Shown here: piece by piece, positions 1-10,285 of the stretch | How the letters are laid out: the number at the start of each line of letters is the position of its first letter | Numbering within the stretch: position 1 is the stretch's first letter | DNA from: a virus | Lineage: Duplodnaviria > Heunggongvirae > Uroviricota > Caudoviricetes | Virus record (IMG/VR): IMGVR_UViG_2531839374_000022 | Direction: 5' to 3' (one strand) | Length of the DNA stretch: 10,285 nucleotides | Notes under the pieces: generated by a model | What the model saw: only the letters and a program-made list of their open reading frames with translations | Databases searched by the model: none | What the model was told of the DNA's origin: nothing | Made by a program: the position numbers and the translations under genes

Positions 1-2433
1 TTACTCCGTCTGCTCAATAATCTGCTGGTGCTCTTTGTTCCCCGTGCCGAACTCACGCAACCACGCATTGTAGCTGTGCTGTATCGCATCACGGCACGTT
101 TGATCATCCCAGCCAGTAACCACGCCACCCAGCAGTAAAGCAGCCTCCAGAATGGCGAACCTTGCCCCTACACGGTGAACCTGTTCCCCATAGTCGGCAG
201 GAATAAGACTGCGCCAGCGGGCTTCACAGTCACGAACGGTATCAATGGCCTGCTGCTGGTGGCCTGCAAGCCATCTGATCCACTCCCGCCCGGCAGCGCC
301 GTGATTGCTCTGCCACGCGGATTTTAATGCGTCTGCATGGTCTTTCCCTGTCTGGTGCTCATGAAAGCGCACCGCCTTACTTAACGGGATATTCAGCAGG
401 CGCACCAGTTGCCCCGCTTTTGTCTTGCGTCCTGCGGTGGCAATGAACGTTTCTAAATCCATTTCCCCGGTGCTGATTGCCACGGTACGCCAGCGTTTTA
501 GATCCCGATTTCCGCCTTCTTTCGCGCCCTGCAATTTCCCTACGCCGTTAAACAGGGCATAGGCAGACTGAGAAACGCTTATCGGGTCTGCGCCCTGTCC
601 GACTTCATCCAGCGGCATCAGTCCGTCATTGTGGGCGGCGGCCTCGTTTATCAGCCCCAGCGCCGTCCCGTACCACGTCAGGCGCAAGGCATCAGGGTTC
701 CCGTATAGACTGCTAGCCACGTTCTGCGTGGTTGTTTTCCCGGCGCTCGATTGCTCATAAAAATGAATCCCGAATCCGTCACGCTCTGCCACCCCGATTA
801 ATGGCGCTGCCAGTGCTGCGGCAATGCCTGTCATCATCGCGTAGTTGCCGTATGCCAGCCGCGCGACACTGTTGCGCCAGCTTTCCGGCGTTCCTGCTAC
901 GGTATACCCGGCAGCGGCTGAACTGCGCCCGCTGAACAAAACAGGCCGCTCAGGTGTGCCGATGATTTCCCCGTCCGGCATGATGTATGCCCCGCACTGC
1001 CAGCCTGTAGCATGAGCAACGCGCCACAATTCACGCGAGCCGCTCCGCTGTAGCCAGTCGGCAAGGATCGCCCGTAAACTGCTTTTGGTCGTGACGTTAA
1101 CCCCACCAGCTTTCAGGGTGCGCCAGCCTTCACGCTCGCCAATATCAGCCAGCGGGATAGCCGCTGTTGTCGGTATGCCTGCACCGAATGCCAGCCATGA
1201 GATAATAAGATACTGATCTTTGTCGTCGCGTCCCGTGCCGATAACCTCCAACGGGGAACATAACCAGCTTTCAGCGTTGACGATCTCCCCGCTTTCCTTG
1301 TCCACCTTCGGCGTTACCCAGAAAACGCCATCTTTGCGGCTCTCAATGTGGGGTTTTAGTGGATCTTTCTCTGGATGGTCAGTTTTACCGCCCTCAATGG
1401 CTTGCAATCGCGGTTTCACGGCTTCCCCTTGAATCTGGTACATCGAATCGTTAAACGCAGCCGTAGCGACTTCCAGCCCGTTTTGCTGGCGGTAGTCGTC
1501 CCAGTCGGCTTTGTAGTCTGTCGGCGGCAGCGCCACCCAGCCAGCCACGGATAAGGCGGCTTTCTCTGCGGCATCTTTGCCCGTGTTCGCCTGGTCGTCC
1601 TGCTGGTGGTCGTTATCTGCGGCAATGATAATCTGCGTGGCTGGATATATCCGGCGCATCACTTCGGCAACGGGTAGCAGGTTGCCCGCGTCAATTGCTG
1701 CCACTGCCAGCGCGTCCGGGCGCATCAGGTGAACTGAAAGGGCCGTCGCCAGCCCCTCGGCAATTAAAACGCTCTGCGGCGATTCTGGCGCGTTTACGGC
1801 GTGATATGCCCCGCGCTTTGCTGAACCTGTCAGGAGTCGCTTCTCTCCCTGCGGTGTAATGGTTTGCGCTGCTGCCACTGCGCCGGATTCGTCCACCAGC
1901 TCCAGCAATAACGAACCATCCGGCATAACCGGATAGTTAAACCCGGTCAGCCCTTTTGATTGCAGGTAATCAGATTCGCCCTGTGTGGCACTCTGGCGCA
2001 TTCCGGCATACAGATGGGCAAACGTAGCCCTTCGCTGCTCTGCGTCCTCTGCTGCCTGTTTCTGGCGCTCCTGCTCACGCTGCTGGCGGTCAGCTTCCAG
2101 TTGCTCTCTTCTATGGCTCGCTGCCGCCGGGTCGGTTTGCGCTGCCCGGTAATCAATACCCAGCACGTCAGCGGCAAGCTGTGCCGCCTCCGTGGTGTCG
2201 CAGTTGTTTACCCGCTTGATTAAATCCAGCCCGTCACCAGCGCCACACTGGTTGCAGATAAAGCTACCGCGCCCGTTGTCGTCGAATCTGAAACGGTCTT
2301 TTCCACCACATGCAGGGCATGGAGAATGGCGGCGCGATGAATCAGGCACGTCGATAGACAATTCAGCCAGCACATAAGGCCAGCGCCCTGCTGCGGCGCT
2401 GGTCACTTCGCGGATAAGGTCGATATTACGCAT
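1..2433 (-). CDS. Bifunctional DNA primase/helicase, phage P4 alpha family (zinc-ribbon + TOPRIM + C-terminal P-loop NTPase)
   Basis: Track ORF 1..2466 (821 aa). N-terminal Cys motif CPACGGKDRFRFDD...FICNQCG (primase zinc ribbon), TOPRIM-like LIAEGLATALSV and IIIAADNDHQ, Walker-A-like SSAGKTTT in the C-terminal half. Likely true start is the ATG at 2433 (MRNIDLIREV...), which has an AGGAGG Shine-Dalgarno 7 nt upstream; the track start at 2466 is an in-frame upstream extension. Stop codon at 1-3. Confidence 0.88.
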   Translation of the reverse strand: MRNIDLIREVTSAAAGRWPYVLAELSIDVPDSSRRHSPCPACGGKDRFRFDDNGRGSFICNQCGAGDGLDLIKRVNNCDTTEAAQLAADVLGIDYRAAQTDPAAASHRREQLEADRQQREQERQKQAAEDAEQRRATFAHLYAGMRQSATQGESDYLQSKGLTGFNYPVMPDGSLLLELVDESGAVAAAQTITPQGEKRLLTGSAKRGAYHAVNAPESPQSVLIAEGLATALSVHLMRPDALAVAAIDAGNLLPVAEVMRRIYPATQIIIAADNDHQQDDQANTGKDAAEKAALSVAGWVALPPTDYKADWDDYRQQNGLEVATAAFNDSMYQIQGEAVKPRLQAIEGGKTDHPEKDPLKPHIESRKDGVFWVTPKVDKESGEIVNAESWLCSPLEVIGTGRDDKDQYLIISWLAFGAGIPTTAAIPLADIGEREGWRTLKAGGVNVTTKSSLRAILADWLQRSGSRELWRVAHATGWQCGAYIMPDGEIIGTPERPVLFSGRSSAAAGYTVAGTPESWRNSVARLAYGNYAMMTGIAAALAAPLIGVAERDGFGIHFYEQSSAGKTTTQNVASSLYGNPDALRLTWYGTALGLINEAAAHNDGLMPLDEVGQGADPISVSQSAYALFNGVGKLQGAKEGGNRDLKRWRTVAISTGEMDLETFIATAGRKTKAGQLVRLLNIPLSKAVRFHEHQTGKDHADALKSAWQSNHGAAGREWIRWLAGHQQQAIDTVRDCEARWRSLIPADYGEQVHRVGARFAILEAALLLGGVVTGWDDQTCRDAIQHSYNAWLREFGTGNKEHQQIIEQTE

Positions 2434-2767
2434 GGTTGCCTCCTGCCACGGTCGCGCCCATATCATTAATCATGCTTTGCCATATCTCGCGCCCGATGTC
2501 AGTCAATCCGTCCTTAGTGACGCAACGATCAAGAAGCTCGATCCCCACGATTTCCCACTGCGGGTAGCGCACTTTCATGGCTGCCAGTGCGTAGCTATCA
2601 ATCAGGCTGCGAACGCCTTTTACTCCATTGACGATTTCCACACGGACGGCGAGGCCGTCCGCATCAATCATGAAATAGTCCCCGCCGCTGGTGGAAGTAA
2701 TGTGGTTATACAGTGCCGCCGCATACTTATTCGCCAGCGCATTCAGTCGGAAATTTTTAGTAATCAT
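2426..2767 (-). CDS. Hypothetical protein (113 aa), last gene before the primase
   Basis: Track ORF; ATG at 2767 preceded by GAGGGG Shine-Dalgarno; stop lies 2 nt before the primase start at 2433. No motif recognised. Confidence 0.6.
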   Translation of the reverse strand: MITKNFRLNALANKYAAALYNHITSTSGGDYFMIDADGLAVRVEIVNGVKGVRSLIDSYALAAMKVRYPQWEIVGIELLDRCVTKDGLTDIGREIWQSMINDMGATVAGGNHA

Positions 2768-2775
2768 GTCGCCCC

Positions 2776-3378
2776 TCAGTGCGCCAGCGGCATTTCAGGC
2801 CAGCCGTTTTCATTCAGTTCAGCTATAAAGCTGTTGTGAAGTTCAGCAAGCGTTTCACGACCAAATGGAGTCAGTGCTCCTTGTTCCACATCCATCATGG
2901 CTCTGTAGAAAATGATGGCGCGTTCTGTGCCAGACTCGATGCCAAAACGTTCTATCATCGCGCCCTCAATGTTGTTTGCCATAGCGAGGCGCTCTGCTAC
3001 TGGATACAGCGGCATGGCGACGATGCCGTTGGAATAAACAGCCACTTCGGAAGGATTGCCAGTATCATCAATGATGCTGACAGTGCCGTTTTCCTCTCTC
3101 ATTTCCAGCATGAATACTGTTGCGATCAGCCAGCGCCACATAATCACGTGATGCTGTGATGTGTAATCGAAATATCCCTGGTTGCCGCCACTGGCAATAG
3201 CGAGATGTATAAACATGCCTTCATCTGGTTTATCGTCATAATCCCCGGCATCCAGACGATTTACGGCATCAATATATGAGACGGTCTCAACGCGTTCTGT
3301 CATGCCATCGTTGCTGCGGTACATGATGTTTACGCCGCCAGGCGTTGCTTCTGCATGGAACGTTAAGAAATTATTCAT
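2776..3378 (-). CDS. Hypothetical protein (about 200 aa)
   Basis: Track ORF 2776..3483; probable start is the internal ATG at 3378 (MNNFLTFHAEA...), which overlaps the stop of the upstream ORF by 8 nt (ATGAATAA) and has a GAGG Shine-Dalgarno. No motif recognised. Confidence 0.6.
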   Translation of the reverse strand: MNNFLTFHAEATPGGVNIMYRSNDGMTERVETVSYIDAVNRLDAGDYDDKPDEGMFIHLAIASGGNQGYFDYTSQHHVIMWRWLIATVFMLEMREENGTVSIIDDTGNPSEVAVYSNGIVAMPLYPVAERLAMANNIEGAMIERFGIESGTERAIIFYRAMMDVEQGALTPFGRETLAELHNSFIAELNENGWPEMPLAH

Positions 3379-3592
3379 GTTTCGCCTCGCCTGAATGATT
3401 CTGTAACTCATATTTGCCCAACAATTCGTCAGCTTCCTGAATAGCTTCTGGTACGCCATTGAGCAGTGACATAACCGCGCCAATCATTAACTTGTCTCTG
3501 TTGCTGGGGCTGGCCCCTTCAAGCCAGAACCCTAAAACAGTCTGAACCTGTTCGATGCGACATTGCGCTTCAATGAGCTGGATGTTGGTCAT
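3371..3592 (-). CDS. Hypothetical small protein (73 aa)
   Basis: Track ORF; ATG at 3592 with GGAGAG Shine-Dalgarno; ATGA start/stop overlap with the upstream ORF (stop at 3589). Confidence 0.55.
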   Translation of the reverse strand: MTNIQLIEAQCRIEQVQTVLGFWLEGASPSNRDKLMIGAVMSLLNGVPEAIQEADELLGKYELQNHSGEAKHE

Positions 3593-3852
3593 TTCGCACT
3601 CTCCACATCGATTAAACTGATATCTATCAGGGAGGTAACTTTTTGTAGCCAGCTATTGATTACTGTCGCCTGTTCCCCTCCCACCGAGGGAACAATCTCA
3701 TTCATCACATGAACCAGACCTGTGCGCGCTCTGGTAAGCCGTTCAGTCGCGCAATCTGCGGGAGTGAATGTGTCTGGATATGGCTCTTCGCGCCCCAGCA
3801 ATGATTCAATTTCCAGCTCACACGGATGACGATAAATTAAGTTGATATTCAT
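3589..3852 (-). CDS. Hypothetical small protein (87 aa)
   Basis: Track ORF; ATG at 3852 with GGGGGTG Shine-Dalgarno; ATGA overlap with the upstream ORF (stop at 3849). Confidence 0.55.
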   Translation of the reverse strand: MNINLIYRHPCELEIESLLGREEPYPDTFTPADCATERLTRARTGLVHVMNEIVPSVGGEQATVINSWLQKVTSLIDISLIDVESAK

Positions 3853-4043
3853 TTTTCACCCCCAAGAATTACCAGCTCTGCACGGGCATCGTTAACCAAA
3901 GATGAGCACGCTTTAATCGCATCCACGACATCAGCAGCGTCCATTTCTTCAGCCGAAAGACTGACAGCAACCAGGACAGCCGCTGTTTGCTCGATTAATT
4001 GAAGTGCGGACGTAAGGCGAGGGGTATTAATTGAGTTATTCAT
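3849..4043 (-). CDS. Hypothetical small protein (about 64 aa)
   Basis: Track ORF 3849..4100 begins with GTG; the internal ATG at 4043 (MNNSINTPRL...) overlaps the upstream stop by 8 nt and has a G-rich Shine-Dalgarno, so 4043 is the preferred start. Confidence 0.5.
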   Translation of the reverse strand: MNNSINTPRLTSALQLIEQTAAVLVAVSLSAEEMDAADVVDAIKACSSLVNDARAELVILGGEK

Positions 4044-4254
4044 TGGTTGCCCCCCGTTTTCCTGACATTTCGCCACCTTCCAGCAGGAAATGAACGTCAC
4101 GAACGGCGAGATCCAATATCGCGAGTAACGCCTTCAGTTTTTCGTCTCGTGAGGGAGAGTTGCTCACCAGAATGTCATTAATCACTTCTGTCAGTGTGAT
4201 GATCTGGCTTGTGCGTTCGAGGGGATCCATATGCACATCGTAGGTTTTAATCAT
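4036..4254 (-). CDS. Hypothetical small protein (72 aa)
   Basis: Track ORF 4036..4344; preferred start is the ATG at 4254 (MIKTYDVHMDPLE...) with a GGAGGTG Shine-Dalgarno; it overlaps the stop of the upstream ORF (ATGATTAA). Confidence 0.55.
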   Translation of the reverse strand: MIKTYDVHMDPLERTSQIITLTEVINDILVSNSPSRDEKLKALLAILDLAVRDVHFLLEGGEMSGKRGATNE

Positions 4255-4441
4255 GTGCCACCTCCATGCGGATACGACCAGCAAAAAAGCAGACGTGATC
4301 GCGCACCAGAGAACGGCGAGCATCGCGTTCAGACTCGGCAGCAATATGATGAATTTTGGCGGTAATTGTCGGGCAATCGCGGCGAACTGCGGCGATAATC
4401 CAGATAAATTGCGGTTTTTGGGTAGGGGTAGTAGCCAGCAT
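4247..4441 (-). CDS. Small protein (64 aa), first gene after the structured leader; possibly Icd-like (host cell division inhibitor family of P1/P4-like elements)
   Basis: C-terminal 64 codons of track ORF 4247..5002. ATG at 4441 has a strong AAGGAGG Shine-Dalgarno 7 nt upstream. Sequence MLATTPTQKPQFIWIIAAVRR...FFAGRIRMEVAHD. The Icd-like assignment rests on position directly after a C4/CI-like leader and a remembered resemblance; it is not verified. Confidence 0.5.
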   Translation of the reverse strand: MLATTPTQKPQFIWIIAAVRRDCPTITAKIHHIAAESERDARRSLVRDHVCFFAGRIRMEVAHD

Positions 4442-4444
4442 AGC

Positions 4445-4710
4445 GGCAGCCTCCTTTGTGTTTAAGGAGTCACCGCCTGAGTTTCCACGCTCTGAAATGG
4501 CGGTGACGTTAGCAGGGGTGGAAATACCGGACACAAAGGAAACCGGCCTACGCGAACGTAGCCCCACTAACGCCACCATTGATACAGTACGGACTAGGCC
4601 GCTGATTTGATGTGCGTAGTGATCGGACACAAAAAAAGACGCTTTCGGCGTCTGTGTCGCCCTGAGTGTGTTCGGGTTTCCACGCCCGGTTGCTGATTTT
4701 GCAGCAACGC
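4445..4710 (-). ncRNA. Candidate structured leader / antisense-RNA immunity region (P4 CI / P1 C4-like): hairpins, direct repeats and a terminator
   Basis: On the minus strand: hairpin GTTGCTG-CAAAAT-CAGCAAC (plus 4689-4708); direct repeat GCGTGGAAAC at plus 4676-4685 and 4481-4490; a complementary TTTCCAC at plus 4518-4524; direct repeat TTTGTGTCCG at plus 4624-4633 and 4528-4537; UUCG-loop hairpin at plus 4548-4561; 9-bp stem GTCACCGCC/GGCGGTGAC (plus 4469-4477 and 4499-4507) enclosing one repeat copy, immediately upstream of the Shine-Dalgarno at 4449-4454. The family assignment is inference. Confidence 0.35.
4631..4653 (-). terminator. Rho-independent terminator (minus strand)
   Basis: Minus strand reads AGACGC-CGAAA-GCGUCU followed by UUUUUUU; 6-bp GC-rich stem at plus 4637-4642 / 4648-4653, then a run of seven T on the minus strand (plus 4631-4637, the last shared with the stem). 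Confidence 0.55.
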
Positions 4711-4940
4711 TTGGACTATAACAGCTTTTCTCTGCTAGGTGGTCATACCAGATAAAACCGTAACCCTTTAAGAGTTTTTCCTGTGCACGGCTCACCATCT
4801 TTTTGTTGAGGGTAAGCGCCTCGCGTACTGGTAACGGAACTCCGGGCGCTGCGGTATCAATATCAGGTTTTATAAGGTTGTAAGGGTTAACATTTGTTAA
4901 CAGGCCAGCCAGATTAAAGGCTTCTTTCTGGGCGGCAGGT

Positions 4941-5123
4941 TCATTCAGTATCACGGCGCACCTCCACGAACTCATTAACGAATCTCTCCAAAGGCTGAAC
5001 ACATGGCGACTGATAGCCCTCGCGGTAAAAGGTCACTCGGTTATGCTCGACGCGCTCAACGGTCACTACAGCCCCGTGCGAATCCTTGTAACGGCTTCCC
5101 GGCATCGGATTGTGGTTACGCAT
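4941..5123 (-). CDS. Hypothetical small protein (60 aa)
   Basis: Track ORF; ATG preceded by GGAGGT Shine-Dalgarno; start overlaps the stop of the antirepressor-like gene by 8 nt (translational coupling). Confidence 0.5.
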   Translation of the reverse strand: MRNHNPMPGSRYKDSHGAVVTVERVEHNRVTFYREGYQSPCVQPLERFVNEFVEVRRDTE

Positions 5124-5925
5124 GGTTTACCTCCAGACGTTTAGCGAGCCAGCGTTGCGACAGGCGGGTGAGTTCTCCTTTGCGCTGCTCATATTCCATG
5201 CCCATATCAATTAACGTGATATTGGTGCTTTCGAGATAGGCGAGGTGTTCAAGCTGTGCTGCGTTCATGCTGTCCCGTGGTTCGCCAGTAATGCCATTTG
5301 CCTGCGCCCACTGCTTCGCCGTCATGCCACCCAGCACGATACGGGCGATCATGTTGCTCTCGTTGCTGTAGTGGCGCTGCTGCGTCGTTTTGCCCATCTC
5401 GGCACGGGCCATATTCAGCGCATCGCACATTGGCTTAAAGTTGTTTGCGGCACTGAGACGGGCTTTTAGCTGGCGACGATAGCGGGCGGCGATTTCAGGC
5501 ACGCTACGCTGTAATTCTTCCTCGCACTGGATGAAATAACGGCGGATAGCGCGGCCCTGCTCGTTGCGTTCAACCATTGCCACTTCTTTAGCCATATCCA
5601 GCGATAGCAGGTAATCATGCTCTATTTGCTGGCGAGTTTTTGCGCTCGCCCGTTTTGGCGTGCTCAAATTTTCAACACGGATAAAATCGGTTCCGGCAAT
5701 AAAACCGTACTGGTCAATTCGGCCTTTAATCCAGTTAGTAAAGTCGCGGCCCACCCCCAGCGCTTTATGCAACGCCTTAGCGCTCACAATATTGGCTTCA
5801 CGCCCGCCAATGCGTCCGGCAATAACGGGAACAATAGCGGCAAAGTCGTTGCCGTTAATTACTCCCGTGTTAACGTTGGGTTGCGGGGCGGCCCCCGAAC
5901 TGAATCGGCTTTTTTCGATAGTCAT
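5116..5925 (-). CDS. Phage antirepressor-like protein (AntA/AntB N-terminal motif plus KilAC-like region)
   Basis: Track ORF 5116..5985 begins with TTG; preferred start is the ATG at 5925 (MTIEKSRF...) with a GGAG Shine-Dalgarno. Motifs SAKALHKALGVGRDFTNWIKGRIDQYGFIAGTDFI (AntA-type) and LSLDMAKEVAMVERNEQGRAIRRYFIQCEEEL (typical of phage antirepressors). Confidence 0.72.
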   Translation of the reverse strand: MTIEKSRFSSGAAPQPNVNTGVINGNDFAAIVPVIAGRIGGREANIVSAKALHKALGVGRDFTNWIKGRIDQYGFIAGTDFIRVENLSTPKRASAKTRQQIEHDYLLSLDMAKEVAMVERNEQGRAIRRYFIQCEEELQRSVPEIAARYRRQLKARLSAANNFKPMCDALNMARAEMGKTTQQRHYSNESNMIARIVLGGMTAKQWAQANGITGEPRDSMNAAQLEHLAYLESTNITLIDMGMEYEQRKGELTRLSQRWLAKRLEVNHA

Positions 5926-5938
5926 ATTTTCGGCTCCG

Positions 5939-6370
5939 TTATGCGGCGGTGAGATTGTCCGGGTATAGATTGAGAGTGTCGGCAATTTCAGGCTGAGAAA
6001 GTCCCTGATAGCCGCCAGCGTCGGCGTTATGGTTCACAAGCCGAATAACTTTTAGAACGTCACCGCGCCCGGTAAAGCGATAGCGTAAATGTGACCCTAT
6101 CCCGTCGGGGTTCTTTTCGTCTATACGCTCAAGCTGAATATCAAGCCTGCGCTCTAACTCGCTGGCGTAGTTCCTTCCAGACGAAAGGCGGCAATAACGC
6201 AGAATGTCATTTTCTGTCCATCCCTCTATACCAGTACGCAGCATATAGACTCTGGCACGATGCTTTTTCGGTGTGCGCTTTGGTGCTTGAAGGGATTTTG
6301 TAAGGGGCGTAACATCAGATACGCGAATATCTGAATTAGCCGCCTGTAATGGGCGGTTTTTCTTTTCCAT
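5939..6370 (-). CDS. Hypothetical protein (143 aa), translationally coupled to alpA
   Basis: Track ORF; its ATG shares the A of the alpA stop codon (TGATG overlap). Basic N-terminus; no motif recognised. Confidence 0.6.
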   Translation of the reverse strand: MEKKNRPLQAANSDIRVSDVTPLTKSLQAPKRTPKKHRARVYMLRTGIEGWTENDILRYCRLSSGRNYASELERRLDIQLERIDEKNPDGIGSHLRYRFTGRGDVLKVIRLVNHNADAGGYQGLSQPEIADTLNLYPDNLTAA

Positions 6371-6573
6371 CAGGCCACCTTCCCGCGGCGTTCTGCCAGC
6401 CAGTTGTGAATCTCAACCGCATCAAACGCAGTTATTTTTTCTCCCAGCTTTACCGGACGTGGTAGTGAACCGTTTCTTACTTTACGGTCGATGGTGGATA
6501 CACTAACGCCCAGCAATTCAGCCAGGCGGAAGCGTCTGATATAGCCTTTTGTAGGGATAGTGTCGATGTTCAT
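6370..6573 (-). CDS. alpA: AlpA/Vis-family helix-turn-helix regulator (prophage CP4-57-type regulatory protein / excisionase-like)
   Basis: 67 aa; RFRLAELLGVSVSTIDRKVRNGSLPRPVKLGEKITAFDAVEIHNWL fits the AlpA-family helix-turn-helix pattern; GAGG Shine-Dalgarno upstream of the ATG at 6573. Confidence 0.85.
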   Translation of the reverse strand: MNIDTIPTKGYIRRFRLAELLGVSVSTIDRKVRNGSLPRPVKLGEKITAFDAVEIHNWLAERRGKVA

Positions 6574-6612
6574 GATTCCCGTAACCTCTTAGCGATAGTT
6601 GTTGCTTCGTTA

Positions 6613-6617
6613 CGGGT
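6613..6617. repeat. IS2 target-site duplication, left copy (CGGGT)
   Basis: CGGGT immediately outside the IS2 end at 6618; identical pentamer at 7949-7953. IS2 is known to make 5-bp duplications. Confidence 0.8.
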
Positions 6618-6628
6618 TGGATTTGCCC

Positions 6629-7534
6629 CTATATTTCCAGACATCTGTTATCACTTAACCCATTACAAGCCCGCTGCCGCAGATATTCCCGTGGCGAGCG
6701 ATAACCCAGCGCACTATGCGGATGCCATTCGTTATAATGTTCGAACGCCTCTGCAAGGTTCTTTGCTGCCGTTAACCCGTCTGGTTTGGGCATGATACTG
6801 ATGTAGTCACGCTTTATCGTTTTCACGAAGCTCTCTGCTATTCCGTTACTCTCCGGACTCCGCACCGCCGTGTTCTTCGGTTCAAGTCCCAACATCCGGG
6901 CGAACTGGCGTGTTTCATTAGCCCGGTAGCATGAACCATTATCCGTCAGCCACTCCACTGGAGACGACGGAAGATCGTTGCCGAAGCGGCGTTCCACCGC
7001 TCCCAGCATGACGTCCTGTACTGTTTCACTGTTGAAGCCGCCGGTAGTCACCGCCCAGTGCAGTGCCTCACGATCACAGCAGTCCAGCGCGAACGTGACA
7101 CGCAGTCTCTCTCCGTTATCACAGCAGAACTCGAACCCGTCAGAGCACCATCGCTGATTGCTTTCTTTCACGGCCACTCTGCCTGTATGTGCCCGTTTCG
7201 ATGGCGGTACAGCAGGTTTTCGCTCAAGCAACAGCGCATTCTGGCGCATGATCCGGTAAACACGTTTGGCATTGATCGCAGGCATACCATCAAGTTCTGC
7301 CTGTCTGCGAAGCAGCGCCCATACCCGACGATAACCATACGTGGGCAGCTCTCCGATAACATGGTGTATACGGAGAAGCACATCCGTATCATCAGTGTGA
7401 CGACTGCGGCGGCCATCCATCCAGTCATCGGTTCGTCTGAGAATGACGTGCAACTGCGCACGCGACACCCGGAGACAACGGCTGACTAAGCTTACTCCCC
7501 ATCCCCGGGCAATAAGGGCGCGTGCGCTATCCAC
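6629..7534 (-). CDS. insD: IS2 transposase OrfB (InsD), 301 aa
   Basis: Track ORF; protein [34 protein letters not shown]... matches IS2 InsD as remembered; GTG start; expressed as the OrfAB fusion by -1 frameshifting. Confidence 0.95.
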
Positions 7535-7857
7535 TTTTTTGCCCGTCCATATTCAACGGCTTCTTTGAGGAGTTCATTTTCCATCGTTTTCTTGCCGAGC
7601 AGGCGCTGGAGTTCTTTAATCTGCTTCATGGCGGCAGCAAGTTCAGAGGCAGGAACAACCTGTTCTCCGGCGGCCACAGCAGTAAGACTTCCTTCCTGGT
7701 ATTGCTTACGCCAGAGAAATAACTGGCTGGCTGCTACACCATGTTGCCGGGCAACGAGGGAGACCGTCATCCCCGGTTCAAAGCTCTGCTGAACAATTGC
7801 GATCTTTTCCTGTGTGGTACGCCGTCTGCGTTTCTCCGGCCCTAAGACATCAATCAT
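7492..7857 (-). CDS. insC: IS2 transposase OrfA (InsC)
   Basis: Track ORF 7492..7902 has an upstream GTG extension; the canonical InsC start [26 protein letters not shown]... is the ATG at 7857. Confidence 0.95.
7534..7541 (-). other. Probable IS2 -1 programmed ribosomal frameshift site (A6G slippery run) in the insC/insD overlap
   Basis: Minus strand reads GGGCAAAAAAGTGG in the InsC/InsD overlap (plus ccactttttt gcccg at about 7531-7545). Frameshifting at an A6G motif is established for IS2/IS3-family elements; the exact position here is by eye. Confidence 0.5.
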
Positions 7858-7948
7858 CTGTACTCCAATGACTAGTCTAAAAACTAGTATTAAGACTATC
7901 ACTTATTTAAGTGATACTGGTTGTCTGGAGATTCAGGGGGCCAGTCTA

Positions 7949-8870: not shown

Positions 8871-8965
8871 TGCGTCACCTTTTACGCTGCGCCTTATTTT
8901 GTGATTGAGCCAGGCGGTAAGGCTTCCCGCTTTTCGCCCCGTCGAGCTAGGCTCAATCTATTCAG

Positions 8966-10285
8966 TTAGTTCGCCCTTCTGAGAGGCGTTACGTTGTAGT
9001 CTTTTCCGCTTTCCAGTGCCACCAGCAGATCAGCCCACTGTGCCAGTGCTGCTTTACGCTCATCAAAATACTGATGGCGGTTATAAATCCCCTCTACGCC
9101 CTTAATGCGATGATTGAGGCATCGTTCCGCCACAACAGGATCAACACCCAACGCTGCTAAATGAGTACGTGCGGTGCGTCGAAAGTCGTGAATCGTGAAA
9201 TTAGGCACATCCGGCATTTCGGCGCGAACCTTAGCCAGTGCTACGGGTAAAGTGCTTTCCTGAATATGTGGGATCATTCTGTTTTGCATCTTCCTGGCCG
9301 GAAGCACCCATGCGCTATTACATGAAAAGGTGTGTAGCTCTCTCAACCATTCAACGGCTGGGGAAGGTAGAGGTATATCAATAGGGTCTCCGTTTTTGCT
9401 GCGTTCTTCCGGCAAATGCCATACCGCACCATCTAAATCAAACTCTTCCCATCGTGCGGCGCATAATTCCATTTTGCGGACGCATAACGCTAACAGTAAT
9501 TTGAACGTGATTTCGTTCTGGCGACTGAATCCCTTAGCCGTGCGCATGGCTTTGAATAGCTGGATTAACTCATCGCGGGTTAACCAGCGGTCACGGGCAG
9601 CTTCTTTCCCTCCGGCGTCTGCCACCTCAAAGGCTGAACAGGGGTTAATCTCTAGCGCGTGCCGTTTGATTCCGTAGTCGAATATGCGGCGCGTCCATCT
9701 CAGCACGTCCGTTGCTATGGTCGGCGCTCCACGGTCAACAATACCTTTCAGCATGTCATCGATATGGCGCGGTTTCACGTCCTCTACCTTCATGCTGCCA
9801 ATGCAGGGGTTTATATCTTTGTCGATACGGCGGCGGAGTATATCGGGGTGCTTCCAGCGCGGGAGGATCTGACGCTCAAAGTATTCAGCGGCAAGCTCTG
9901 AAACGCGCATAGCGTTCTTCTCTGCTTCCATCTTCGCCAGTGCTTCGGTTTTGCGCTTCTGCTTCTCTCCTGCAACGTCATAGCCCAGCGCAACGCGAGC
10001 CGATAGCTCTTTGGCTGTCTCTCTGGCCTTTGATAGTGATAGCTCGCTATACGAACCAATTAGCATGGCGCGGGACTTCCCTGCGAGTTTATAGCGGAAT
10101 CTCCATGTGGGGGTTTTGTCGGCTTCACGGTAACGTAGGTATAAACCGTTACCGTCTGCCCGCCCCTCGAATCGCTCTCCGCTCTTAATCCATGCGCGGA
10201 TCTGCATGTCTGTTAGTTTTGGCATTTTGCGAATATCCAAACTTTGAATAGGGGGTGTACCCAAAGCAATGTACCCAAACCTCAT
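8966..10285 (-). CDS. int: Tyrosine-type site-specific integrase, P4-like family (N-terminal arm-binding domain + catalytic domain)
   Basis: Track ORF of 439 aa reaching the window edge. N-terminal GNGLYLRYREADKTPTWRFRYKLAGKSRAMLIGSY matches the P4-type arm-binding (DUF4102-like) pattern; C-terminal HDFRRTARTHLAALG...NHRIKGVEGIYNRHQY carries the R/H-x-x-R/Y catalytic signature. A more typical start is the internal ATG at 10225 (MPKLTDMQIRAWIK...). Confidence 0.9.
   Translation of the reverse strand: MRFGYIALGTPPIQSLDIRKMPKLTDMQIRAWIKSGERFEGRADGNGLYLRYREADKTPTWRFRYKLAGKSRAMLIGSYSELSLSKARETAKELSARVALGYDVAGEKQKRKTEALAKMEAEKNAMRVSELAAEYFERQILPRWKHPDILRRRIDKDINPCIGSMKVEDVKPRHIDDMLKGIVDRGAPTIATDVLRWTRRIFDYGIKRHALEINPCSAFEVADAGGKEAARDRWLTRDELIQLFKAMRTAKGFSRQNEITFKLLLALCVRKMELCAARWEEFDLDGAVWHLPEERSKNGDPIDIPLPSPAVEWLRELHTFSCNSAWVLPARKMQNRMIPHIQESTLPVALAKVRAEMPDVPNFTIHDFRRTARTHLAALGVDPVVAERCLNHRIKGVEGIYNRHQYFDERKAALAQWADLLVALESGKDYNVTPLRRAN

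Follow-up and report, generated by a model that had tools for sequence, protein, structure and literature searches.

A 10,285-nucleotide (nt) stretch of viral DNA, IMG/VR record IMGVR_UViG_2531839374_000022 (Caudoviricetes), very probably contains the immunity control module of a P4-related integrative element, of the kind that is built on an antisense RNA: C4 in phages P1 and P7, CI in P4. The whole of this stretch is referred to below as the window. The module is already known in kind, being recognised by three curated Rfam families and matching the P4 immunity region part for part. Only the breadth and apparent reassortment of the specificities of its two antisense segments, a' and b', and a conserved alternative hairpin around the target a2 are mildly new. 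Membership of the RNA families, covariation within the RNA, co-variation of a' and b' with their targets, and conservation of the reading frame in which the RNAs are nested were all established in this analysis. The parts of the module are as follows, in base pairs (bp) and amino acids (aa) where sizes are given.

4715-4723, minus strand: predicted constitutive promoter, -10 hexamer TATAGT at 4720-4715 with an extended -10 TG at 4723-4722 (by homology only)
4632-4708, minus strand: IsrK/seqA-type leader RNA of 77 nt, made up of hairpin 1, hairpin 2, b1 and an intrinsic terminator (Rfam isrK)
4708-4689, minus strand: leader hairpin 1, 7 bp, GUUGCUG/CAGCAAC (seen in the sequence)
4688-4673, minus strand: leader hairpin 2, with a1 displayed in its loop (leader fold)
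4677-4683, minus strand: a1 target GUGGAAA, in the loop of leader hairpin 2 (perfect complement of a')
4661-4669, minus strand: b1 target ACACUCAGG, degenerate in the window's lineage (position in a 69-locus alignment)
4631-4653, minus strand: intrinsic terminator, AGACGC CGAAA GCGUCU and a U run (terminator scan; part of the isrK model)
4496-4583, minus strand: C4/CI-type antisense RNA (Rfam C4, RF01695)
4531-4540, minus strand: b' antisense segment UCCUUUGUGU, forming the loop of C4 hairpin 2 (complementary to b2 at all 10 nt)
4518-4524, minus strand: a' antisense segment UUUCCAC, in the single-stranded C4 junction (complementary to a1 and a2)
4482-4488, minus strand: a2 target GUGGAAA (perfect 7-nt complement of a')
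4469-4507, minus strand: alternative hairpin with a 9-bp stem, 4507-4499 with 4477-4469, and a2 in its loop (pairing and covariation)
4452-4461, minus strand: b2 target ACACAAAGGA, overlapping the Shine-Dalgarno sequence AAGGAGG (4456-4450) of the kil/icd-like gene (complementarity; P1 position)
4247-4441, minus strand: Icd/Kil-like gene of 64 aa, ATG at 4441, the first gene under predicted C4 control (NCBIfam NF033153)
4247-5002, minus strand: long eta-like frame, 251 aa from GTG 5002 or 242 aa from ATG 4975 (Pfam, PHROG, conservation of the open frame)

When the whole window was scanned with Rfam, C4 antisense RNA (RF01695) was recognised over its full length at 4583-4496 on the minus strand, with a score of 80.3 bits against a cut-off of 45 (E 6e-15, model positions 1-87 of 87). 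The first-pass annotation, made from the sequence alone, had tentatively assigned the region to the C4/CI family and had named this search as the check on it; the assignment is borne out. The same scan found isrK (RF01394) at 4708-4632 (72.1 bits, cut-off 50) and the c4-a1b1 target motif (RF03163) at 4721-4669 (55.1 bits, cut-off 46.7), both full length and on the minus strand. These two hits have 40 nt in common and represent one element twice. RF03163 is placed in clan CL00128 together with C4, and RF01394 is in no clan. isrK and C4 co-occur in every locus scanned with Rfam, that is in P4, D6, the Salmonella phage ST64B and loci L005, L008, L013 and L026 of the survey described below. The order in the window is the -10 hexamer, the IsrK/seqA-type leader with its terminator, C4, a2, b2 over the Shine-Dalgarno sequence and the Icd/Kil-like gene. 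A layout of repeat, terminator, complementary segment, repeat and ribosome-binding site had been read from the sequence beforehand, and this was right; P4 has the same order, and so has P1 for a1, b1, C4, a2, b2 and icd. The individual signals listed on the minus strand at that stage, namely the terminator, the UUCG-loop and 7-bp hairpins, the repeats, the TTTCCAC segment and a 9-bp stem, are likewise all present as described. Folding was also proposed as a check, and the 296-nt region as a whole folds better than all 200 of 200 dinucleotide shuffles (z = -3.7).

C4 is formed by a long basal stem around two hairpins, of which the first has the UUCG loop, CUACG-UUCG-CGUAG, and this structure is supported by covariation. 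A purpose-built covariance model, R1, made from the window, P4, D6 and P1, scores the window's C4 at 97.2 bits. In an alignment fitted to the model the cloverleaf is 99.7% paired, with compensatory changes in 17 of 27 pairs; an independent MAFFT alignment gives the same 99.7%, with 14 of 27 pairs compensatory. None of 500 shuffles reached these values, and shifted controls drop to 29-52% paired. The first-pass annotation had named a conserved, covarying structure in homologous elements among the things to be expected, and the cloverleaf is such a structure. Alignment to the 77-nt P1 C4 RNA, using the annotated P1 coordinates, predicts a mature RNA of 79 nt at about 4577-4499. Processing is hinted at by sequence only: AU|GG is conserved at the 5' end, and the CC that follows the basal stem is invariant. 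RNase P cuts the 5' end of the P1 and P4 antisense RNA. By analogy, a stable C4 of about 77-79 nt would be excised from a longer transcript.

The 3' strand of the C4 basal stem has a second partner. The 9-bp stem that had been seen around the repeat copy nearest the ribosome-binding site does enclose the second GCGTGGAAAC copy, and it uses that same strand, so the hairpin and the C4 cloverleaf are mutually exclusive. The hairpin is 98.6% paired in 65 sequences, six of its nine pairs are compensatory, and its covariation score was reached by 0 of 500 shuffles. The 3' basal-stem strand thus has a co-varying partner in each of two structures. Apparently the read-through transcript can fold either into the C4 cloverleaf or into the hairpin that presents a2. 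Alternative conformers have likewise been described at the Gifsy-1 locus (PMC4825925).

The antisense segments have clear targets in the window. The TTTCCAC segment, which had been noted as complementary to the first repeat, pairs with both GTGGAAA copies and is a'; its position is that of a' in P1 (CUGUCAA). The strongest complementarity, between b' (4540-4531) and b2 (4461-4452) over the ribosome-binding site, had been missed. It forms a duplex of 10 perfectly matched nucleotides with an energy of -20.2 kcal/mol, reached by none of 500 shuffles, and the position of b2 agrees with that annotated in P1 immediately before icd. Two pairs of exact repeats had been reported, and they fared differently. 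GCGTGGAAAC occurs exactly twice in the window, at 4685-4676 and 4490-4481, where 0.02 occurrences are expected; its copies contain a1 and a2 and are targets. TTTGTGTCCG also occurs exactly twice, at 4633-4624 and 4537-4528 (0.03 expected), and was rejected as a functional target repeat: one copy is the b' loop and the other the tail of the terminator. In related loci the terminator tail is a U run followed by GUGUC, ACGUC or AUGUC, unlike the b' of the same locus. A 6-nt GACACA match to b' in the leader was also considered as b1 and rejected, as it is part of a GCGACAC motif found in most loci whatever their b' type.

Related loci were gathered from Enterobacterales genomes with an alignment of the Icd proteins of the window and P4, which yielded 66 loci in a sample biased towards P4-like loci; antisense-target and frame comparisons covered 69 loci. 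A full-length C4 lies immediately upstream of an Icd-like gene in 65 of the 66, the remaining locus having no upstream DNA. There are 12 types of a', 25 types of b' and 37 combinations of the two among the 69 loci. Each a' finds its own 7-nt perfect complement in a2 in all 69 loci, and in a1 in 68 of 69, across the 12 types. Nearly all of the 25 b' loop types are matched by their own b2. The mean match is 8.6 nt between b' and its own b2 and 7.5 nt between b' and its own b1, against 4.2-5.0 nt for pairs of different type, and in most loci other than the window's b1 is a perfect complement of 7-10 nt. As judged from the sequences, such co-variation of antisense segment and target is what would be expected if the antisense pair works and determines specificity. 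It has a parallel in the known heteroimmunity of P1 and P7 (PMC12197685). Similar DNA is carried by about 640 of 5,426 complete E. coli genomes.

Two loci from Mangrovibacter yixingensis, L033 and L014, both at contig ends, have an identical promoter and IsrK leader and different C4 RNAs; a1 and b1 of L033 fit the C4 of L014 and not its own. Recombination or cross-talk between the two could lie behind this, as could misassembly at a repeat. In phage D6 (L003) a second, weaker C4-like match (40.7 bits with the purpose-built model) is found at 2024-2103, about 470 nt upstream of the main C4, and immediately downstream of it is a sequence partly complementary to its junction.

Transcription is predicted to start at about G4708. 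The -10 hexamer of the window aligns with the annotated -10 (TATAGT) of P1c4/P51b in P1 and with a TATAGT at the equivalent position in P4, and TATAGT or TACAGT occupies the -10 position in nearly all P4-like loci. The terminator at 4653-4631 is the sole terminator-like site found between 4000 and 5300 by the terminator scan. It is kept in P4, D6 and the P4-like loci; at the corresponding place in P1 no clear hairpin is seen. Within the eta-like frame, about 170 nt before the predicted -10, two palindromic hexamers are found as GTTAAC-AAAT-GTTAAC (4886-4901, minus strand), and these could be a protein-binding site.

Downstream of b2, the 64-aa open reading frame (ORF) matches the NCBIfam model NF033153 (phage_ICD_like) with 71.7 bits. 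It shares 39% identity with the ORF in the equivalent place in P4 and 28% with P1 Icd, and its homologue in RefSeq is named 'host cell division inhibitor Icd-like protein'. We take the P4 ORF directly after CI to be kil. A tblastn search of the phage collection with the 64-aa protein returned nothing at E <= 1e-3, the query probably being too short.

The long eta-like frame encloses the promoter, both RNAs and, in the same phase, the kil/icd-like gene. Pfam PF10554 (Phage_ASH) matches it with 83 bits over residues 95-198, which correspond to the RNA region (4409-4720, minus strand), and PHROG 6928, labelled 'transcriptional repressor', matches with 114 bits over the IsrK, C4 and target region. 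Counterparts of these matches lie at 6222-6728 in the E. coli homologue L001 and at 8168-8584 in P4 (L002), where the old 'cI gene product' coding sequence also overlies the IsrK, C4 and target region. The RefSeq homologue of the frame is an 'ash family protein', flagged as a pseudogene. These protein labels thus fall on an RNA locus within an eta-type frame, and the name 'repressor' is probably a legacy of the P4 cI annotation.

The frame itself is conserved. In 64 of 69 loci it stays open from the Icd/Kil gene across C4 and the leader, with a median open length of 357 nt; the medians of the other two frames are 24 and 120 nt. Between the a1 hairpin and the AUG at the 5' end of C4 the distance takes nine values from 86 to 170 nt, all of them 2 modulo 3, in 65 of 66 loci. 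In P1 and D6 the frame is interrupted by stops. The long frame is a second layer on the same DNA which coexists with the RNAs and is not an alternative to them. In an account of P4 that cites Forti et al. 1999 (PMC10111431), kil is the terminal part of the longer eta, whose start lies upstream of the constitutive promoter; translation of eta depends on a late promoter further upstream, is coupled to the alpA homologue and prevents termination, and both the frame and the RNAs are described as functional. CI and seqA homologues within Bro/eta-type satellite genes have been noted before (PMC10111431). The first-pass annotation would have taken translation of the whole 4247-5002 frame as evidence against an RNA module. 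This does not hold, given the coexistence of eta and the RNAs described for P4 (PMC10111431) and the conservation of the frame in related loci. In L001, L005 and L009 a 1-nt deletion (GCCACATG as compared with GCCGCTATG) just before the kil/icd-like ATG, equivalent to 4442-4446 of the window, shifts the eta-like frame out of phase with kil/icd, and the RNAs and their targets are intact.

Directly after the kil/icd-like start, a C-rich and G-poor tract at 4380-4436 (minus strand) lies at the 97th percentile of the window; in the 69 loci this position has on average 18.5 C and 8.4 G per 50 nt. From its composition, it is only suggestive that the tract might be a Rho loading site, exposed when the kil/icd-like gene is not translated.

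A mechanism can be proposed on the model of P4, P1 and Gifsy-1, from which RNA processing, the translation block, Rho-dependent termination, the override from an upstream promoter and the role of the short leader are carried over. The constitutive promoter inside the eta-like frame, with its -10 at 4720-4715, would start transcription near 4708. The majority of transcripts would end at the terminator, giving an IsrK/seqA-like RNA of about 77 nt that bears a1 and b1. Transcripts that read through would contain C4/CI, to be excised as a stable, tRNA-like RNA of about 79 nt, whose a' (UUUCCAC) and b' (UCCUUUGUGU) would pair with a2 (4488-4482) and b2 (4461-4452) on read-through transcripts. As the b2 duplex covers the Shine-Dalgarno sequence, the 64-aa kil/icd-like gene would remain untranslated; the untranslated RNA would therefore be terminated, probably in a Rho-dependent manner, before the small ORFs and the primase gene; and the element would as a result be quiescent and immune to incoming elements that share its a'/b' type. 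During transcription from the upstream alpA-like operon, ribosomes on the eta-like frame would cross the leader, C4 and the targets, and the block would be overridden.

Around the module, the following further features were located.

1-2466, minus strand: primase (zinc ribbon, Toprim and DUF927 domains), cut by the end of the window, the distal gene of the controlled operon (Pfam)
5116-5985: AntA-domain protein, upstream of the promoter
6370-6573: AlpA-like gene
about 6617-7947: IS2 (IS3 family), with orfA at 7492-7902, orfB at 6629-7534 and recognisable terminal repeats
8891-8957, minus strand: int-alpA RNA motif RF02996, between the integrase gene and a 282-aa ORF (60.6 bits, cut-off 35.8)
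8966-10285: integrase candidate, a 439-aa ORF (homologue annotated as a tyrosine integrase)

The primase gene is placed relative to C4 as the P4 alpha gene is to CI, and small ORFs with no assigned function lie between it and the kil/icd-like gene. Upstream of the module are genes for a DUF4222 protein and the AntA/AntB-domain protein, a 143-aa ORF and the AlpA-like gene; beyond AlpA come IS2, the 282-aa ORF, the int-alpA motif and the integrase gene. IS2 sits 44 nt upstream of the start of the alpA-like gene and is absent from L001. By comparison with E. coli NZ_CP092452, the immunity module and the antirepressor side are 97% identical and the primase gene 92%; the small ORFs between the kil/icd-like gene and the primase gene have no detectable DNA similarity to that genome. 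A mosaic boundary falls at the kil/icd-like stop codon, between 4247-5599 and 2434-4246.

Several points weigh against the interpretation as a P4-type immunity module. A sigma-70 consensus scan of 4000-5300 found no -35/-10 pair, so the promoter call depends on the alignment with P1 and P4, and no -35 is recognisable at the predicted promoter. The terminator lies between promoter and C4, so that C4 output would depend on the efficiency of read-through. The window's b1 is complementary to b' at only seven of nine positions, and a duplex of b' with IsrK is no better than those of shuffles; the upstream target, or decoy, may work poorly in this element, since b1 is degenerate. (A repaired b1 would read ACACAAAGG, as against ACACUCAGG in the window.) The sign of the net contribution of the a1/b1 leader is uncertain: in P4 seqA helps termination, and in Gifsy-1 IsrK switches translation on (PMC4825925). 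IS2 may have cut off, or replaced, the upstream promoter that would override the block in the alpA-to-primase operon. Neither the window nor the closest homologous island in E. coli has sid, psu or delta; in that island just ssb, a PerC-family gene and hypothetical genes separate the primase gene from the chromosomal genes. The element is thus not a classic P4. Finally, the small RNAs, their ends and premature termination are predicted by analogy.

The activity of the short IsrK RNA of Gifsy-1, which activates downstream translation, leads to a different reading, in which the module would be mainly an activator: the leader would act in trans on read-through transcripts, or on C4 as an a1/b1 decoy, and turn downstream translation on, with no role in immunity. 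The score of the isrK match and the perfect mimicry of a2 by a1 would fit with this, as would the findings that the short Gifsy-1 IsrK shares complementary sequence with the processed downstream RNA and raises translation of the downstream ORF and the antirepressor more than 100-fold (PMC4825925). In the window's element, however, the degenerate b1 and the poor duplex between b' and the leader would make the short RNA a weak competitor for C4, and the genes downstream are arranged as in P4, for which repression by termination is documented (PMC10111431). Activator and repressor modes are, moreover, not mutually exclusive. A mainly activating role is considered improbable. As an antisense-RNA immunity module, the region has also to be set against its protein-coding content. 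If the 251-aa Ash/eta frame were the sole product and the RNA-like signals by-products of it, the Phage_ASH and PHROG 6928 matches, the 'ash family protein' name, the open frame in 64 of 69 loci and the spacer insertions and deletions that keep phase would all be accounted for. Coding constraint, though, leaves unexplained the 14-17 compensatory stem pairs, the matching changes of 12 a' and 25 b' variants at two distant sites and the Rfam scores far above their cut-offs. P1 and D6 have kept the RNAs and targets in spite of in-frame stops, and in P4 both the RNAs and the eta frame are described as functional (PMC10111431). Coding function alone is therefore a very improbable explanation.

Decay of the island offers a further explanation, that the module is a relic, no longer active, whose sequence has been kept by recent descent alone. 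IS2 just upstream of the alpA-like gene, the two mismatches in b1, the 1-nt deletion that breaks the eta-kil frame in the homologues L001, L005 and L009 and the RefSeq pseudogene flag could be taken as signs of it. In the window itself, however, a' is perfectly matched by a1 and a2 and b' by b2, C4 keeps an intact fold (80-97 bits), the kil/icd-like ORF and the long frame are open, and so is the primase ORF up to the window's end. That the module is a relic is scarcely credible.

The value of assigning the region to the C4/CI antisense-RNA kind is chiefly one of annotation: the locus can be labelled as a C4/CI antisense RNA and an IsrK/seqA leader with nested eta and kil genes, and the element marked as a P4-related island with its replication genes under RNA immunity. 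The clean co-variation of two antisense segments with their targets also makes these loci a good natural system for RNA-based heteroimmunity, by a mechanism that is not of a new kind. A tentative extension, on balance doubtful, is that a' and b' constitute a combinatorial two-part address code, the parts of which have apparently been reassorted between elements, and that the leader has been rewired into an a-only decoy where b1 has decayed. Were this so, the code could give rise to dozens of mutually heteroimmune satellite types and steer competition between co-resident elements, and the change from a full to an a-only decoy would alter the set-point of the switch in lineages with a decayed b1 and perfect a1, a2 and b2. 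In the papers that were searched, no survey or test of the address-code or a-only-decoy idea was found.

In the annotated record of P1, P51a/P51b, a1, b1, the 77-nt C4, a2, b2, icd and ant follow one another, and this order is shared with the window through icd. When the window, P4, P1 and D6 are aligned together, they are colinear from the shared TATAGT -10 to the start codon of the first gene. Among phage DNA, the window is matched most closely by the P1-like phages RCS47 and D6, with 70% identity. As in immI of P1 and P7, a' lies in the junction and b' in a hairpin loop, target pairs flank C4, b2 is at the ribosome-binding site of icd, and the first gene is Icd-like. Unlike the window, P1 has no clear terminator hairpin between b1 and C4, its long frame is not open, and its C4 controls icd-ant; the window's AntA-type gene is upstream, with no ant gene downstream, and the genes under predicted C4 control are the kil/icd-like gene, the small ORFs and the primase gene.

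The Gifsy-1 IsrK locus of Salmonella (IsrK, orf45/STnc1160 and anrP) resembles the window in its three-hairpin leader that ends in an intrinsic terminator, in read-through that yields a C4-like processed RNA complementary to the leader, and in an ORF that overlaps the RNA (PMC4825925). The processed species is of about 80 nt, and its authors themselves drew the comparison with seqA and CI of P4 (PMC4825925). The pair of isrK and C4 is also present in ST64B, which is lambdoid. Gifsy-1 differs in having an antirepressor translationally coupled to orf45 and in being without an icd/kil-like gene or primase.

The closest parallel in layout is P4, in which the PLE promoter, seqA, the CI RNA with seqB, seqC and the nested kil and eta genes precede the alpha primase. 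The CI/seqA region of P4 contains C4 (74.9 bits), within the old 'cI gene product' coding sequence, and isrK (60.8 bits) about 110 nt upstream. The window and P4 have in common the promoter, the IsrK/seqA-type leader with terminator, the C4/CI RNA and a2 and b2 at the ribosome-binding site, a Kil/Icd-like first gene of about 64 aa under an overarching in-frame eta-like ORF, a primase operon downstream, and an alpA-like gene and integrase upstream (PMC10111431). The two differ in specificity, with a' UUUCCAC in the window and UUCUCAC in P4 and b' loops UCCUUUGUGU and UCCUGUGAA, respectively, and in the spacer between terminator and C4, which is 60 nt shorter in the window (110 as against 170 nt). 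They differ too in the AntA/AntB and DUF4222 genes between alpA and eta in the window's element, in the unrelated small ORFs from kil to primase, and in the lack of sid, psu and delta from the homologous E. coli island. The gene layout is nonetheless that of P4, with an immunity RNA before a replication operon, and not the c4-icd-ant arrangement of P1.

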